A DNA stretch of 4,776 bases from a virus (lineage: Duplodnaviria; Heunggongvirae; Uroviricota; Caudoviricetes): IMG/VR virus record IMGVR_UViG_2603880148_000009; one strand, 5' to 3'. How positions within the stretch are numbered: the first letter of the stretch is position 1; each line of letters begins with the position of its first letter. The translations under genes were made by a program, and so were the position numbers. Below the pieces are notes generated by a model. It searched no databases. It had not been told where the DNA came from and saw only the letters and a list, made by a program, of their open reading frames with translations. Below, piece by piece: positions 1-4,776 of this stretch.

Positions 1-64
1 GCAGTTCGCTGCATACCGGTCCGACCCCGTACTGCTCACGCAGCTTATCCAGCAGTGGCATCAT
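1..64 (-). CDS. IS3-family transposase OrfB, 5' fragment (continues beyond window)
   Basis: Mirror of 4723..4776; ATG overlaps orfA stop (ATGA) in the -1 frame, translation [18 protein letters not shown]...; typical orfA/orfB overlap of IS3 family. Confidence 0.6.
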
Positions 65-387
65 TTTTTCCAGAGGCGGTCGAACTCCGCCTTCGCAAAA
101 TAAGCGGAAGCCTGGCGAAGGATATCGTTACTGCGGCGCAGTTCACGATTTTCACGTTCCAGCTCTTTCAGACGCTGACGTTCAGCGCTGGTGAGCCCAC
201 CATCACCGCCCCCGGTATCCCGCTCATGCTGGCGAACCCAGACACGCAGAGTCTCCGGCGTACAGCCAATCTTTGGGGCAATGGAACAAATTGCCGCCCA
301 CTGTGAGTCATATTCATCCTGACTTTCCAGAACCATACGAATCGCCCGCTGACGGACTTCGGGGGAAAAACGAGTATTTTTAGTCAT
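61..387 (-). CDS. IS3-family transposase OrfA (HTH, leucine-zipper-like C-terminus), IS629-like
   Basis: 108-aa [26 protein letters not shown]...; ATG at 385-387 (complement); identical protein to 4400..4726; matches my recollection of IS629/IS1203 OrfA. Confidence 0.9.
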
Positions 388-412
388 CCTGTTTACCTCT
401 TTCTCAGGGAGT

Positions 413-853
413 TTAGTCTCCAGGATTTCCGGGGCGGTTCACTCCGGCATCTTTTTTATTGGTTTGGGGGAGTGGATTAATTACCCTCTCAAGGTGAGAT
501 TTATTGGTCCTGGAGTTTGGACTCGTGGATATAATCGTTCTTCGTGCGCACTCGGTATCATCTTCGACATACTTGGTTGTTTCCTGATTGTTACAGGAGT
601 CGTCAAGTTCTTCTGATGTAAAACCGCAAATGGGGCACGTAACGGGAATTTTGAAAAGCGTTTCTCCGGGTTCCAGAACAAAATTTTCTGCGGTCTGATT
701 TTGCTTCTCATATTTGTGCTCCGCGTCATTGTGAGAGCACATTCTTATTCTGAGTGCCTGTTTAAACTCACTGAAGCTGAGAGCTTCTTCGCCTTCGGCA
801 AGGCCTTCGAAGTATTCTTCGTAAGCCTTTTCCATGATTGTGTCGAAATCCAT
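413..853 (-). CDS. YdfB/YdfC-like prophage protein with CxxC motif; last ~9 codons and stop are encoded by IS sequence (3' end probably disrupted)
   Basis: ORF-track ORF 413..895; I prefer the ATG at 851-853 because it has an AGGTGA Shine-Dalgarno ~7 nt upstream and sits 1 nt after the ydfA stop, whereas the 895 ATG has no SD. Protein begins [17 protein letters not shown]..., contains TCPICG. Reading frame passes the IS junction at 441/442 with no stop. Confidence 0.5.
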
Positions 854-854
854 A

Positions 855-1010
855 TCACTCACCTGAGTTTCTTTCCAGCCAGCGACGGGCACCATTTTCG
901 GTTTTAAACGTTTTGCTTTTGGTATACGTCATCGCGGTGAACGTGCCGTCCTGATTGGGGAACACGCCACATACCAGAGATTCGCTGTTGCCAAGATCGA
1001 TAGTATCCAT
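855..1010 (-). CDS. ydfA: YdfA-like small prophage protein (51 aa)
   Basis: ATG at 1008-1010 (complement) preceded by GAGG SD; protein MDTIDLGNSESLVCGVFPNQDGTFTAMTYTKSKTFKTENGARRWLERNSGE; the 77-aa ORF-track version starts at a TTG at 1086-1088 and is less plausible. Position immediately downstream of dicA matches Qin prophage gene order (recall). Confidence 0.6.
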   Translation of the reverse strand: MDTIDLGNSESLVCGVFPNQDGTFTAMTYTKSKTFKTENGARRWLERNSGE

Positions 1011-1126
1011 GCTGACCTCATTTCCCCTTAACGCCGGGGTGGCGGAACTGTTTGCTGAGAACACCGTGCGGTGTGTTGATGTAAACAAGATTAGTCATAA
1101 CTAACATATTGGTCAAGTGATTTTGT

Positions 1127-1142
1127 ATGTTATGGCTAACAT
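1127..1142. promoter_or_regulatory. Palindrome ATGTTA-TGGC-TAACAT, candidate repressor-binding site between dicA and ydfA
   Basis: Perfect 6-bp inverted arms seen in sequence; shares GTTA...TAAC core with the two palindromes in the dicA-dicC intergenic region. Confidence 0.3.
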
Positions 1143-1151
1143 AATTGATAT

Positions 1152-1182
1152 AATAAAAGATAACTCATTGATGATGTTATCT
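1152..1182 (-). terminator. Candidate intrinsic terminator at dicA 3' end (possibly bidirectional)
   Basis: Inverted repeat AGATAAC (1158-1164) / GTTATCT (1176-1182) with 11-nt loop; T-rich runs on both sides (TTTTATTT on plus 1182-1189; AATAAAA on plus 1152-1157 = U-run on minus). Stem is AT-rich, so weak. Confidence 0.3.
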
Positions 1183-1584
1183 TTTATTTGTCCGCTGACG
1201 GGCTTTTAGTAATTCTTCAAAGAGTTTATTGAAATTTTTTACTCGAGCTCGCATTTCGGCGAGCTGGGTATCCTGTTCTGATTCTGGCAGTGCATTAAAC
1301 AGCTCAAGGAGCTCTAGTTCTTTGGGGGCTAAGGCAACCGGCTTCTCAACAGGTGGTGTTGGTTGCTTGTCTTCATCGCCAAATAGAATCCATGTTGGTG
1401 AGCATTGCAATACTTTGCTGAGGGCAAAAAGGTTCTTCCCTGTAGGTTCACTATCATCCCGTTCCCATTGTGATACAGACACATGGGAGATTTTCAGGGC
1501 TTTAGCAAGAGACCTTTGGGTGTGTTTGAGGTTTTTCCGACGATACCTAATGCGTTCGCCGATGGTTAAATTTTTTGTATCCAT
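1177..1584 (-). CDS. dicA: HTH XRE-family repressor, DicA-like (cI/C2-type prophage repressor)
   Basis: 135-aa ORF MDTKNLTIGERIRYRRKNLKHTQRSLAKALKISHVSVSQWERDDSEPTGKNLFALSKVL...; classic HTH_3 signature (Q-x-x-LA-x-x-x-x-IS-x-x-x-VS-x-WE); matches my recollection of E. coli Qin DicA almost residue for residue; divergent from a cro-like gene. Confidence 0.85.
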   Translation of the reverse strand: MDTKNLTIGERIRYRRKNLKHTQRSLAKALKISHVSVSQWERDDSEPTGKNLFALSKVLQCSPTWILFGDEDKQPTPPVEKPVALAPKELELLELFNALPESEQDTQLAEMRARVKNFNKLFEELLKARQRTNKR

Positions 1585-1586
1585 AG

Positions 1587-1600
1587 TTAGCTAATGCTAA
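1587..1600. promoter_or_regulatory. Palindrome TTAGC-TAAT-GCTAA, candidate operator adjacent to dicA start codon
   Basis: Perfect 5-bp inverted arms, 3 nt from the dicA ATG (1582-1584 complement); lies in the divergent dicA/dicC control region. Confidence 0.35.
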
Positions 1601-1604
1601 ATCG

Positions 1605-1633
1605 TATTGACTATGTTTTTGTTAACATCTATT
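1605..1633 (+). promoter_or_regulatory. Candidate sigma70 promoter for dicC (-35 TTGACT 1605-1610, 17-nt spacer, -10 TATTTT 1628-1633)
   Basis: Hexamers and spacing read directly from sequence; SD AAGGTG at 1654-1659 and ATG at 1668 follow. Confidence 0.35.
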
Positions 1634-1634
1634 T

Positions 1635-1652
1635 TGTTAGCCATGACTAACA
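1635..1652. promoter_or_regulatory. Palindrome TGTTAG-CCATGA-CTAACA, candidate operator overlapping the predicted dicC transcription start
   Basis: Perfect 6-bp inverted arms immediately downstream of the predicted -10; same GTTAG/CTAAC arms as the other two palindromes. Confidence 0.35.
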
Positions 1653-1667
1653 TCTAAGGTGTTTTAA

Positions 1668-1898
1668 ATGCTTAAAACTGACGCTCTTTTGTATTTCGGT
1701 TCAAAAACAAAACTTGCACAAGCAGCAGGTATTCGTTTGGCTTCGCTTTATAGCTGGAAAGGGGATTTAGTTCCCGAAGGTCGCGCGATGCGTCTACAGG
1801 AGGCATCTGGCGGGGAGCTTCAGTATGATCCCAAAGTTTATGACGAATATCGTAAGACGAAGCGGGCGGGGCGGTTGAACAATGAAAATCACTCCTGA
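1668..1898 (+). CDS. dicC: Cro-like regulator DicC-like
   Basis: 76-aa ORF MLKTDALLYFGSKTKLAQAAGIRLASLYSWKGD...; divergent from dicA across an 83-bp region with palindromes; matches my recollection of E. coli DicC. Confidence 0.8.
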   Translation: MLKTDALLYFGSKTKLAQAAGIRLASLYSWKGDLVPEGRAMRLQEASGGELQYDPKVYDEYRKTKRAGRLNNENHS

Positions 1899-2403
1899 AC
1901 AGGCTCGTGAGGCTCTGGATGCCTGGATATGTCGACCAGGAATGACACAGGAGCAGGCGACGATATTAATCACTGAAGCATTCTGGGCTTTGAAAGAGCG
2001 CCCGAACATCGATGTTCAGCGTGTCACATATGAAGGTGGCGCGGTTGATCAGCGAGCGCTTAGCGTTAATCGAGTGAAGATATTTGAACGCTGGAAGGCT
2101 ATCGACACCAGGGATAAGCGTGAAAAGTTCACAGCGCTAGTGCCTGCAATTATGGAGGCTATCCGGATTAGTGATTTCAGGTTGTATCGTGAAATTAGTG
2201 ACGGAAAGAGCATTACGTACATGATCGCTGGGTTAAATAAAGAATATGGCGATGTGGTGGAGTCCGGACTGCTTTTTGCAGATCCTGCCGTTGTAGATCG
2301 TGAAACTGACGAACTTATAGAAAAAGCAATTGCTTTCAAGCTTGCGTATCGACAGCAATACCAACAAAAAGCTGGATGGAATTATGAGCCTTCTTTTTGC
2401 TGA
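1882..2403 (+). CDS. YdaT-like prophage protein (putative toxic/regulatory protein downstream of cro-like gene)
   Basis: 173-aa ORF with ATG at 1882, overlapping dicC 3' end by 17 nt; the position (third gene after repressor/cro) and the general sequence character resemble YdaT-family proteins of Rac-like prophages; family assignment is from recall, not a search. Confidence 0.55.
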   Translation: MKITPEQAREALDAWICRPGMTQEQATILITEAFWALKERPNIDVQRVTYEGGAVDQRALSVNRVKIFERWKAIDTRDKREKFTALVPAIMEAIRISDFRLYREISDGKSITYMIAGLNKEYGDVVESGLLFADPAVVDRETDELIEKAIAFKLAYRQQYQQKAGWNYEPSFC

Positions 2404-3349
2404 ACGCCCACTGGTTATAAACACACAGCTTGCGATGAAGATTGGCTTAAACGAAGCCATTGTGTTGCAGCAACTGCATTACTGGTTGAGAGATACCAAT
2501 TCCGGCATGGAATGTGATGGTGTTCGCTGGATTTACAACACAACGGAACAATGGCTGGCGCAGTTCCCGTTCTGGTCAGAGTCAACGTTAAAGCGCGCGT
2601 TTGCAAGTCTGAAAACGCTGGGGCTTTTGCGTTGCGAAAAGCTCAATAAATCAAAGCGCGACATGACCAATTTCTACACGATCAACTATGGGAGCGATCT
2701 TTTAGATGGTGGCAAATTGAGCGAATCCATCAGTTCAAAATGCGTCGCTCCATCAGGTCAAAATGACATGATGGAAGAGGTCAAAATGAAACGCTCCATT
2801 GGTTCAAAACGACCCAATGTCATCGGGTCAAAATGGCCCGATGATCCTACAGAGAATACAACAGAGATTACTACAGAGAATAAAAACACTTTTCGTCCGG
2901 AAGCTTTGCAACCGGACCAGCAGACGGCTGAACAGGATTTTTTAATCCGGCACCCTGACGCAGTTGTGTTTAGTGCGAAAAAACGGCAGTGGGGTAGCAG
3001 GGAGGATTTGGCGTGTGCGCAGTGGATCTGGGGGCGGATCGTGGGTCTCTACGAACAGGCCGCCAGTGATGATGGCGAGATCATGCGACCAAAAGAGCCT
3101 AACTGGACTGCCTGGGCCAATGACGTGCGCACAATGCGGATGCTGGATGGCAGAAGCCACAGACAAATTTGCGAAATGTTTGGTCGGGTACAGCGAGATC
3201 CATTCTGGGTCAAAAACATCATGAGTCCGTCAAAGCTTCGCGAAAAATGGGATGAGCTGGTTATTCGCCTGGGGCGTTCGCCAATAAAGCGTTGTGTGAA
3301 TCATATTTCTGAACCGGATACCGAAATTCCGCCTGGTTTCAGGGGATAA
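2384..3349 (+). CDS. Phage replication initiator / replisome-organizer-like protein (N-terminal winged-helix DNA-binding domain, central linker containing the origin repeats, C-terminal domain)
   Basis: First ATG at 2384 (the ORF-track start at 2330 is a TTG that overlaps the upstream gene by 74 nt); N-terminus LVINTQLAMKIGLNEAIVLQQLHYWLR is HTH-like; the gene contains a DNA-level iteron array, as lambda O contains ori-lambda. Confidence 0.65.
   Translation: MSLLFAERPLVINTQLAMKIGLNEAIVLQQLHYWLRDTNSGMECDGVRWIYNTTEQWLAQFPFWSESTLKRAFASLKTLGLLRCEKLNKSKRDMTNFYTINYGSDLLDGGKLSESISSKCVAPSGQNDMMEEVKMKRSIGSKRPNVIGSKWPDDPTENTTEITTENKNTFRPEALQPDQQTAEQDFLIRHPDAVVFSAKKRQWGSREDLACAQWIWGRIVGLYEQAASDDGEIMRPKEPNWTAWANDVRTMRMLDGRSHRQICEMFGRVQRDPFWVKNIMSPSKLREKWDELVIRLGRSPIKRCVNHISEPDTEIPPGFRG
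2727..2835 (+). repeat. Iteron array: five direct repeats (consensus about CCATCAGGTCAAAATG) at 23-24 bp periodicity, putative replication origin inside the initiator gene
   Basis: TCAAAA cores at 2735, 2758, 2781, 2804, 2828; flanking bases also conserved (CCATCAGTTCAAAATG / CCATCAGGTCAAAATG / GAGGTCAAAATG / CCATTGGTTCAAAACG / CATCGGGTCAAAATG). Period is not a multiple of 3, so each copy is translated in a different frame, i.e. the repeat is conserved at DNA level, not protein level. Confidence 0.6.
2849..2882 (+). repeat. A-rich 12-bp tandem repeats (ACAGAGAATA / ACAGAGATTA / ACAGAGAATA) immediately downstream of iterons; candidate DNA-unwinding element of the origin
   Basis: Three copies starting at 2849, 2861, 2873, followed by AAAAAC; encodes TENTTEITTENKNT in the initiator linker. 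Confidence 0.4.
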
Positions 3350-3389
3350 GTGTTGATTTCAGGTCATGAGGTAATTTTAAGGGGGACTT

Positions 3390-3818
3390 GTGGCAAAAGT
3401 TTTTACACAAGAAGAGCGGGAAAAAATTAAAGGGCAGGTGGTGGAACTCGTGCGCCAGAGCGGTCGTGAGACGTTACGGCAACTGGAAGCCAAGACAGGT
3501 GCGACAAGATATCTGATGAGCGCTCTTGCCAGAGAGCTGGTTGCCAGTGGCGATGTATACAACTCTGGTTACGGGTTATTCCCGTCTGAACAGGCCCGTA
3601 AGGACTGGCAAAACGCCCGCAAAAAACTCTCGAGGGCAAAGGTGAAGAAACCCGCTGCGGTTGATCCAGACCTTATCTGGTCATTAGCTGACGGAGAAAT
3701 ACGTCGTTACGACAGACATCATAATATAATTTGTAGTGAGTGCCGTAAAAGCGAAGTTATGCAGCGTATATTGTCTTTTTATCAGGGAAATGTTCGATAT
3801 TTATTGAAGTATCAATAA
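3390..3818 (+). CDS. Hypothetical protein (142 aa), unknown function
   Basis: GTG start at 3390 preceded by strong SD AAGGGGG 5 nt upstream; no recognisable Walker motifs; C-terminal ~35 codons are markedly AT-rich; C-terminal HHNIICSECRK motif. Confidence 0.5.
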   Translation: MAKVFTQEEREKIKGQVVELVRQSGRETLRQLEAKTGATRYLMSALARELVASGDVYNSGYGLFPSEQARKDWQNARKKLSRAKVKKPAAVDPDLIWSLADGEIRRYDRHHNIICSECRKSEVMQRILSFYQGNVRYLLKYQ

Positions 3819-3913
3819 CCTATTTAAACATTCCTTAAACTCAGAGTAGACTGGGTTAACAATCTGTTTCAATTGCAAATTGACAATCTATAGCCAGCGC
3901 GACGGGAGTGTTC

Positions 3914-4348
3914 ATGTTTAGTCAGGTTGACATCGGTAGTTTCGGTAGTTTTACGGACCTCAGTTGGAAAAATAGCCTTAAGGATGCAGGTAACAATGTC
4001 CAGAATTTCAAGAGGCTTAACATCCTCTACGGACGGAACTACTCTGGTAAAACTACACTCTCACGAATTTTCCGCGCTTTGGAAACGGGGCGCATTCCAC
4101 ATAACTACGTGGACCCAAATTTTACTATTCGTGGTGACAAAGGTGATGTGACACAGGTAGGTCTTGCTGGTCATGGCTACGATGTTCGCGTCTACAACCG
4201 GGATTTTGTGAGCGATAACCTAAACTTCTTGGTCAATCAGACCGACGGCGAGATCAAGACGTTTGCTATCGTTGGTGAAAAGAATAAAGAAATCGAAGAT
4301 GCCATTACCGCAATTCAAACTAGGTTAGGCAGTGTTGAATCGAAGTGA
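3914..4348 (+). CDS. P-loop NTPase N-terminal fragment (Walker A GRNYSGKTT; AAA_13/ABC-ATPase-like), truncated by IS insertion; the stop codon TGA is the first three bases of the IS
   Basis: ATG at 3914 with GGGAG SD 5 nt upstream (the ORF-track GTG at 3908 overlaps the SD); Walker A at residues ~43-51; no Walker B or further ATPase motifs before the reading frame hits the IS terminus TGAACC at 4346; low GC relative to neighbours. Confidence 0.6.
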   Translation: MFSQVDIGSFGSFTDLSWKNSLKDAGNNVQNFKRLNILYGRNYSGKTTLSRIFRALETGRIPHNYVDPNFTIRGDKGDVTQVGLAGHGYDVRVYNRDFVSDNLNFLVNQTDGEIKTFAIVGEKNKEIEDAITAIQTRLGSVESK

Positions 4349-4399
4349 ACCGCCCCGGAAATCCTGGAGACTAAACTCCCTGAGAAAGAGGTAAACAGG

Positions 4400-4726
4400 A
4401 TGACTAAAAATACTCGTTTTTCCCCCGAAGTCCGTCAGCGGGCGATTCGTATGGTTCTGGAAAGTCAGGATGAATATGACTCACAGTGGGCGGCAATTTG
4501 TTCCATTGCCCCAAAGATTGGCTGTACGCCGGAGACTCTGCGTGTCTGGGTTCGCCAGCATGAGCGGGATACCGGGGGCGGTGATGGTGGGCTCACCAGC
4601 GCTGAACGTCAGCGTCTGAAAGAGCTGGAACGTGAAAATCGTGAACTGCGCCGCAGTAACGATATCCTTCGCCAGGCTTCCGCTTATTTTGCGAAGGCGG
4701 AGTTCGACCGCCTCTGGAAAAAATGA
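4400..4726 (+). CDS. IS3-family transposase OrfA, IS629-like
   Basis: 108-aa ORF identical to the protein of 61..387; run of six A immediately before the stop and orfB ATG overlapping the stop in the -1 frame. Confidence 0.9.
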
Positions 4727-4776
4727 TGCCACTGCTGGATAAGCTGCGTGAGCAGTACGGGGTCGGACCGGTATGC
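4723..4776 (+). CDS. IS3-family transposase OrfB, 5' fragment (continues beyond window)
   Basis: ATG at 4723 overlapping orfA TGA (ATGA), -1 frame relative to orfA; [18 protein letters not shown]... Confidence 0.6.

Follow-up and report, generated by a model that had tools for sequence, protein, structure and literature searches.

Gene content and control sites of the window

The stretch of DNA analysed here, referred to below as the window, is 4,776 nt long and corresponds, by gene calls, annotation and profile searches, to part of a Qin-type lambdoid prophage of Escherichia coli, namely its immunity and early-right region. The features identified in it are given below by position, with the evidence for each in brackets.

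1..441, minus strand: inward-facing end of an IS3-family insertion sequence (inverted arms, Rfam ALIL, orfA)
1-106: ALIL frameshift pseudoknot of the left IS (Rfam, 96.5 bits)
61-387, minus strand: IS3-family orfA, left copy (ORF call)
855..1010, minus strand: ydfA, DUF1391 (Pfam DUF1391, 8.8e-28; annotation of the identical locus L001)
Minus strand, like dicA and ydfA: ydfB-like ORF
1091-1143: operator-like repeats in the dicB promoter region, PL analogue (repeat families D3/D6, inverted pairs I2/I13)
1177-1584, minus strand: dicA, cI/C2-like repressor (NCBIfam DicA, 234.5 bits against a cut-off of 101; Pfam HTH_3 and Phage_CI_repr; annotation)
1585-1667: divergent control region between dicA and dicC
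1587-1600: palindromic operator-like site TTAGC-N4-GCTAA (repeats, read from the sequence)
1607-1635, rightward: promoter-like site TTGACT-17-TATTTT, dicCp, PR analogue (promoter scan)
1620-1627: palindromic operator-like site TGTTAACA (repeats, read from the sequence)
1635-1652: palindromic operator-like site TGTTAG-N6-CTAACA (repeats, read from the sequence)
1668-1898, plus strand: dicC, Cro-like regulator of the P22 Cro family, 76 aa (Pfam, NCBIfam, comparison with K-12)
1875-1892: dyad box TTGAAC-AATGAA-AATCAC across the YdaT-like start codon, a candidate operator for the 173-aa product
1882-2403, plus strand: YdaT-family, CII-like gene, 173 aa, the full-length form of K-12 YdfX
2384-3349, plus strand: O-like phage replication initiator (phrog_391, 4.5e-91; annotation)
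2728-2843: five 23-nt iterons within the O-like gene, candidate replication origin (direct-repeat family D1)
3390-3818, plus strand: DUF977/Ren-like protein (Pfam DUF977, 1.8e-29; phrog_142)
3908..4348, plus strand: first ~146 codons of an AAA_13 ATPase gene, cut by the right IS (Pfam AAA_13)
4346..4776, plus strand: inward-facing end of a second, inverted IS3-family copy (inverted arms, ALIL, orfA)

A preliminary description of this DNA had placed the dicC locus on an IS-bounded segment, and this was borne out. Inverted arms of 436 nt at 11-446 and 4341-4776, detected by repeat search, are the ends of IS3-family elements; the ALIL frameshift pseudoknot is present in each arm (Rfam), and the ORF list contains a 108-aa orfA in each of the two copies. 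In genome comparisons the match to uninterrupted prophages begins at window position 442, and the inner 3.9 kb (442-4345) have copies of 100% identity in three complete E. coli genomes. In strain T309.Ta3, the one examined in detail, the inner 3.9 kb lie within an uninterrupted Qin-like prophage adjoining rspB. The IS-bounded state is therefore secondary; the exact IS-bounded layout was found in no complete E. coli genome and in no PLSDB plasmid searched. At the left edge, ydfA opens the dicB operon, which runs leftward under repression by DicA and whose dicF/dicB/ydfD part has been removed by the left IS. The AAA_13 ATPase gene at the right edge is intact in L001, where it encodes 798 aa and matches the PADLOC candidate defence family PDC-S06 with 1067 bits.

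The reading frame of dicC shares 17 nt (1882-1898) with that of the 173-aa protein, exactly the overlap reported in the preliminary description, and the YdaT-like and O-like genes overlap in turn by 20 nt. The iterons within the O-like gene fit a lambdoid origin, as expected.

The assignment of dicC itself is firm, with 75 of 75 compared residues the same as in K-12 DicC and with scores above the cut-offs of both the NCBIfam DicC model (159.5 bits, cut-off 130) and the Pfam P22_Cro model (44.1 bits, cut-off 30.2). Upstream of the gene, the promoter-like site and the repeats of the dicA-dicC spacer fit the published PR/PL-like layout, in which there are three operators at dicBp and three at dicCp and DicA and DicC form a CI/Cro-like bistable switch (PMC10448788). 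The repeats of the dicB promoter region, which lies downstream of dicA, are related to those in the spacer according to the repeat search.

The 173-aa protein and its relatives

The product of the second rightward gene had been assigned tentatively to the YdaT family, and this assignment was confirmed. The protein scored above the cut-off of the Pfam family YdaT_toxin, PF06254 (27.6 bits, cut-off 21, E 4.2e-6, residues 59-131), which was also found in all of its homologues, and the identical gene is named 'toxin YdaT family protein' in RefSeq (WP_000705359.1). BLASTP against Rac YdaT aligned 29 residues only, with 41% identity, around the recognition helix, so that profile methods were needed for the remainder; hhalign of a profile of 43 homologues against Rac YdaT gave 97.3% probability and an E-value of 2.4e-11 over residues 1-110. 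A sequence search of the PDB returned marginal matches only (3c4r, E 0.046; 8bt1, E 0.066). The NCBIfam scan of the protein identified no family at E up to 0.01, and the Pfam scan no CII family at E up to 0.1. In PHROGs the protein falls into phrog_163, 'CII-like transcriptional activator', with an E-value of 8.8e-41, in the category of transcription regulation. The link to lambda CII is thus one of position and function only.

An AF2 model built on the alignment of 43 homologues (pLDDT 85.3) is all-helical. Helices at 5-16 and 23-36 are followed by a loop of 20 residues (37-56), the putative recognition helix (57-71) and a helix at 77-97; the C-terminal region, about 30 residues longer than that of Rac YdaT, comprises three helices (99-106, 111-130 and 135-164) where YdaT has one long tetramerisation helix. 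When the model was compared with the PDB by Foldseek, 8bt1, a YdaT structure, was the only confident match (probability 1.00, TM 0.64 by target length, 30% identity), and the large overall rmsd of 8.7 A is probably due to the differing C-terminal helices. No meaningful full-length match was obtained by Foldseek in the viral structure library BFVD. As modelled, the protein has the all-alpha, POU-like helix-turn-helix (HTH) domain of the YdaT type with its long loop ahead of the recognition helix.

Residues R70 and W71 are invariant in the 43 homologues and align with R57 and W58 of Rac YdaT. In Rac YdaT the H56A/R57A double mutation abolishes DNA binding, and W58 has been credited with maintaining the fold (PMC11879457). 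The position of Rac His56 is occupied by Glu69 in the 173-aa protein and by Gln in most of the long subfamily, a substitution suggesting that the half-site preference differs, not that the protein falls outside the YdaT family. This long subfamily (160-173 aa) also occurs in Citrobacter, Salmonella, Raoultella and Enterobacter, at about 40% identity. The 173-aa protein is an HTH transcription factor of the YdaT family, located in the CII position; by analogy with the characterised YdaT proteins, we infer that it would itself bind DNA and activate transcription.

The preliminary description had further likened the dicC pair to ydaS-ydaT of Rac. This comparison survived for the layout, a divergent cI-like repressor followed by a cro-like and a YdaT-like gene, and for the second protein; it failed for the first, as DicC is not of the YdaS family. 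DicC scored 18.3 bits against the Pfam YdaS model (PF15943, 'YdaS_toxin'), below the cut-off of 30, and BLASTP gave no alignment between DicC and Rac YdaS. Because of these two results only the 173-aa gene can be regarded as homologous to a member of the Rac pair: dicC and the 173-aa gene are together analogous to ydaS-ydaT, with homology limited to the second gene.

The 522-nt gene is common. It is covered over at least 80% of its length in 2119 of 5426 complete E. coli genomes, where it adjoins dicC or another gene of the Cro/CI family. A protein of 97-98% identity is encoded between cro and O in the deposited genomes of phages HannyBb, mEp460_ev081 and PhiR42_1, in two of which it is annotated as cII or as 'CII-like transcriptional activator'. 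The gene order repressor (minus strand), cro-like, YdaT-like and O-like (all plus strand) is found in PhiR42_1 and HannyBb too. In HannyBb both the repressor and the 5′ half of cro differ from those of the window, but from window position ~1768 onward the two DNAs are identical, so the YdaT-like gene moves as a module with the 3′ half of cro, the joint lying inside cro. A mosaic boundary within cro is typical of lambdoid immunity regions. In two distant loci (L013 and L014), from Citrobacter braakii and from a metagenome, the order repressor, cro-like, YdaT-like, O-like and DnaC-like is kept, with YdaT-like proteins about 40% identical to that of the window and unrelated cro genes. The stop codon of cro lies in or beside the dyad box elsewhere as well, the overlap being 4 nt in locus L013 and 7 nt in locus L014. 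K-12 itself encodes YdfX, a protein of 96 aa with 98% identity to residues 1-93 of the 173-aa protein; from this comparison K-12 ydfX is a truncated N-terminal remnant of the 173-aa gene.

A dyad box over the start codon of the YdaT-like gene

Operators of two YdaT proteins have been described. The footprinted YdaT-box of Rac, ATGATT-CATGAA-AATCAA, lies across the ydaT start codon (PMC11879457), and the YdaT operator of CP-933P, TTGATT-N6-AATCAA, lies at the ydaS/ydaT junction (PMC9986795). The box at 1875-1892 of the window stands in exactly the same register as the Rac YdaT-box. It is a poor palindrome, with 3 of 6 symmetric positions, and has three mismatches to the published consensus. Matches to TTGATT-N6-AATCAA with up to 3 mismatches are no more frequent in the window than expected by chance (2 found, 3.6 expected), for which reason the argument for the box rests on its register and on its conservation across loci.

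Conservation was assessed on 80 viral-contig loci and two genome loci with distant homologues, which were reduced to 18 non-redundant sequences. A first scan of viral contigs gave near-identical loci only, and distant homologues were used for a second scan. The pattern nTGAAC-N6-(G/A)ATCAn occurs at the same place in all 18 non-redundant loci. Its columns are nearly invariant, while the upstream flank is essentially unconserved across the 18 loci and the downstream flank is conserved only in part. The spacing of the box is held even in a group in which the ATG lies 3 nt further to the right. The outermost positions are complementary in 13 of the 18 loci and occur in three combinations (T/A, C/G and G/C). 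A half-site matrix identified one strong site in the window, scoring 18.5 (highest score among 200 shuffles, 17.7), with the window's own box included among the 18 training sites of the matrix.

These observations provide good in-silico evidence for 1875-1892 as the predicted operator of the 173-aa protein. Part of the conservation could stem from constraints on translation initiation or on an M-x-I N-terminus. A perfect 14-bp palindrome at 2004-2017, examined as a possible further operator, was rejected; it has a low score with the box matrix, and about 0.3 such palindromes per window are estimated to occur by chance.

Regulatory role and the toxin label

The window most probably represents an early-right immunity region of the Qin type, in which the DicA/DicC switch is joined by a CII-like factor of 173 aa that would bind the box at the start of its own gene. 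DicA, as the cI analogue, would act on the operators of the 1585-1667 spacer and keep the rightward promoter off. Loss of DicA would give rise to a single transcript covering dicC, the 173-aa gene and the genes for the O-like replication initiator and the Ren-like protein. DicC, being Cro-like, would repress dicA, and such repression by DicC has been described (PMC10448788). The 173-aa protein, as an oligomer, may bind the dyad box over its own start codon and stimulate leftward transcription towards dicA, by analogy with CP-933P and Rac, where the repressor gene has a leftward promoter that YdaT activates (PMC9986795, PMC8630535, PMC11879457); it might damp its own expression as well. The 17-nt overlap reflects ordinary translational coupling of the two regulators, and any harm to over-expressing cells would arise, as a side effect, from a strong transcription factor acting at host promoters rather than from a dedicated toxin activity. 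When the minus strand of 1000-2600 was scanned by consensus for a leftward PRE-like promoter, no site emerged. Several -10 hexamers picked by eye (e.g. TACGAT, 1854 to 1849) were dropped as candidates, since their distance to the box varies across the other loci.

According to the preliminary description, dicC and the 173-aa gene would instead constitute a toxic module guarded by a repressor. On such a reading, one or both products would serve mainly to harm the host upon loss of DicA, making dicA addictive. The Rac precedent on which that proposal drew is indeed on record, as silencing of racR kills Rac-bearing K-12 via ydaS and ydaT (PMC5700377); expression of Rac YdaT leads to filamentation and death (PMC11879457), and the window has the same layout as Rac. 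Excess DicC also impairs growth, and does so in a Qin-free strain too (PMC11430063), so harm by over-expressed DicC is plausible. Such toxicity has, however, been ascribed to transcription-factor action on host promoters and DNA. The DicC growth defect, which is independent of Qin, was attributed to widespread binding of host DNA (PMC11430063), and Rac YdaT, toxic on expression, also activates host rcsA (PMC11879457), while CP-933P YdaT showed no toxicity (PMC8630535). The position of the genes likewise speaks against the proposal. They fill the cro-cII slot as the first two genes of an operon that runs into the O-like gene and continues into replication genes; copies 97-98% identical occupy the cro and cII positions of deposited phage genomes, and the second gene is CII-like by annotation in phages and in PHROGs. 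The known cause of dicA essentiality in Qin is the dicB operon, on the opposite side of dicA (PMC10448788), and in the window this classical lethal operon is separated from the dicA locus by the left IS. Neither protein matched a PADLOC model. The proposal of a guarded toxic module was therefore not upheld, and we consider it unlikely.

Read as a type II toxin-antitoxin system, the pair would consist of a YdaT-like toxin and its antitoxin, DicC, which would agree with the Pfam names 'YdaT_toxin' and 'YdaS_toxin' and with the presence of two small overlapping genes, the first of which encodes a DNA-binding protein. These names derive from a 2007 prediction that was not confirmed by later experiments (PMC5917428, PMC9986795, PMC8630535), and YdaS and YdaT are now described as analogues of Cro and CII, not as a toxin-antitoxin pair (PMC8630535, PMC5917428, PMC9986795). 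Furthermore, deletion of either ydaS or ydaT alone is viable (PMC5700377), published work on the homologues speaks against neutralisation of a toxin through direct binding by an antitoxin (PMC8630535), the 173-aa protein models as an HTH DNA-binding fold with no recognised toxin fold, and DicC falls below the YdaS cut-off. The genes do not form a self-contained two-gene operon either, as they have a separate repressor, DicA, and their operon extends to the O-like and DUF977 genes; this reading is so improbable that it can be set aside in practice. If, on the other hand, both genes were inert relics of a decayed prophage, the box could be merely a signal for translation initiation or coupling, as is suggested by the IS disruption on either side of the window, by the 96-aa stump, YdfX, that is all K-12 retains, and by the location of TGAACAATG between a Shine-Dalgarno-like sequence and the ATG. 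Against this, the ORF is intact, 100% identical in complete prophages and 97-98% identical in deposited phage genomes. The spacing of the box stays constant when the ATG shifts by 3 nt, its outer positions co-vary as in a dyad, and it shares position and format with two footprinted YdaT operators (PMC9986795, PMC11879457). Decay of this kind is very unlikely, and we retain the reading of the pair as components of a lambdoid switch.

Existing annotation and published discussion already cover the architecture, the gene and its likely role, and the gene occurs very widely. The label 'toxin' was inherited from databases and stands on what are ordinary Cro-like and CII-like switch regulators. Correcting it matters because the name 'toxin YdaT family protein', carried by thousands of E. 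coli genomes, invites toxin-antitoxin readings, while the evidence assigns the 173-aa gene to the place of cII in a lambdoid switch. What is new is limited to the dyad box specific to the subfamily, which lies over the start codon and modestly extends the published work on the YdaT-box; being conserved, the box offers a ready target when binding and reporter activity are studied for a prophage regulator that about 40% of complete E. coli genomes encode. A further-reaching proposal, which we put forward as tentative, is that the long YdaT subfamily (160-173 aa) uses its own box, nTGAAC-N6-(G/A)ATCAn, set exactly on the start codon, so that one binding event would switch repressor synthesis on and the protein's own translation or transcription off, and that the 173-aa protein, like Rac YdaT at rcsA, may reach host promoters and be conditionally toxic in the ~40% of E. 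coli strains with an intact copy.

Among known systems, Qin of K-12 (dicA-dicC-ydfX) is the same type of locus, as judged from the 75 of 75 identical DicC residues, the passing DicA model and the 98% identity of YdfX over residues 1-93, and the operators and promoters of the window are laid out as in the described DicA/DicC switch (PMC10448788). In K-12, ydfX is truncated to 96 aa, without the C-terminal helices, and the O-like and DUF977 genes have been lost; the window retains the full-length gene, but its IS3-family copies cut off dicF/dicB and truncate the AAA ATPase gene.

Rac of K-12 (racR-ydaS-ydaT) likewise has a divergent repressor, a cro-like gene and a YdaT-family gene ahead of replication genes. 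The YdaT DNA-binding domains are homologous, and a dyad box lies over the YdaT start in the same register (PMC11879457). The first gene of the Rac pair encodes YdaS, whereas DicC of the window belongs to the P22-Cro family, and ydaS and ydaT are separated by 22 nt whereas the window genes overlap. Rac YdaT has 140 aa, the protein of the window 173 aa with a different C-terminal region and with Glu in place of the recognition-helix His; the half-sites are TGAAC/ATCA in the subfamily of the window and TGATT/AATCA in Rac. Toxicity and rcsA control have been shown for Rac YdaT only.

The best structural match to the 173-aa model comes from CP-933P (paaR2-ydaS-ydaT of E. coli O157:H7; 8bt1), with 30% identity over the aligned columns. 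The YdaT of CP-933P, a tetrameric HTH factor, recognises an inverted repeat of the form 6-N6-6 where ydaS meets ydaT, and it activates a PRE-like promoter (PMC9986795, PMC8630535). In contrast to the CP-933P locus, the repressor of the window has no toxin-antitoxin cassette attached to it. With the cI-cro-cII-O region of lambda the window shares the gene order, the divergent repressor, a regulator directly before O, iterons inside O and a mosaic boundary in cro. Lambda CII has no sequence relationship to the 173-aa protein detectable with Pfam and is an analogue, not a family member; it binds direct TTGC repeats, whereas the YdaT family uses a dyad.

IS3-family copies and the genes at their edges

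A 3.9-kb piece of prophage is enclosed in the window between two IS3-family copies, which are inverted relative to each other, with orfA facing inward in both, and near-identical over 436 nt. This IS-bracketed layout was absent from all complete E. coli genomes and PLSDB plasmids searched. The left copy cuts dicF, dicB and ydfD off from dicA-dicC, and the right copy interrupts an AAA_13 ATPase gene.

1-446, left IS3-family copy
413-895 (-), ydfB-like ORF
3908-4348, AAA_13 ATPase gene, 5′ part
4341-4776, right IS3-family copy

The intact AAA_13 ATPase, a protein of 798 aa, is encoded at 14815-17211 of L001, the identical locus in the uninterrupted Qin-like prophage of E. coli T309.Ta3. This protein matched PDC-S06, a PADLOC family of candidate anti-phage defence proteins, at 1067 bits and contained, in addition, a weaker PrrC-like stretch. 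The gene appears to have a defence function and to be carried by the prophage, with the copy in the window inactivated by IS insertion.

At the left copy, the ydfB-like ORF is lengthened to 146-160 aa, its reading frame continuing into the end of the IS. The extended ORF contains a CPICG motif; a family search with its product returned no match, the best being a sub-threshold rubredoxin-like one. Only a partial ydfB is annotated at the corresponding position in T309.Ta3.

Repeats in the O-like gene and the gene that follows it

Two sets of repeats lie in close succession, the five iterons within the O-like replication gene having a consensus of about CATCnGGTCAAAATGnnnCGxTC.

2728-2843, five tandem 23-nt iterons
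2847-2885, three 12-nt repeats

The array at 2728-2843 is probably the prophage replication origin; the ori of phage lambda likewise lies inside O. In the distant loci from Citrobacter (L013) and a metagenome (L014), the O-like protein ends in the motif PPGF(K/R)G, as does that of the window. In L013 and L014 (region 3528-5147) the O-like gene is followed by a DnaC/IstB-like ATPase gene, whereas the Qin-type locus carries the DUF977/Ren-like gene at this position and has no helicase-loader gene.

Mosaicism in dicC and a palindrome in the YdaT-like gene

Comparison with phage HannyBb (L005) placed a sharp mosaic breakpoint at ~1768, midway through dicC, the cro-like gene. The repressor and the 5′ half of cro differ between HannyBb and the window, and the DNA is identical from ~1768 through the CII-like gene.

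At 2004-2017 the YdaT-like gene contains a perfect 14-bp palindrome, GAACATCGATGTTC. The palindrome includes the GAAC half-site core and lies downstream of the dyad that covers the start codon, at a distance of 120 bp. About 0.3 such palindromes per window are estimated to occur by chance, and the homologues differ in protein sequence where the palindrome falls.
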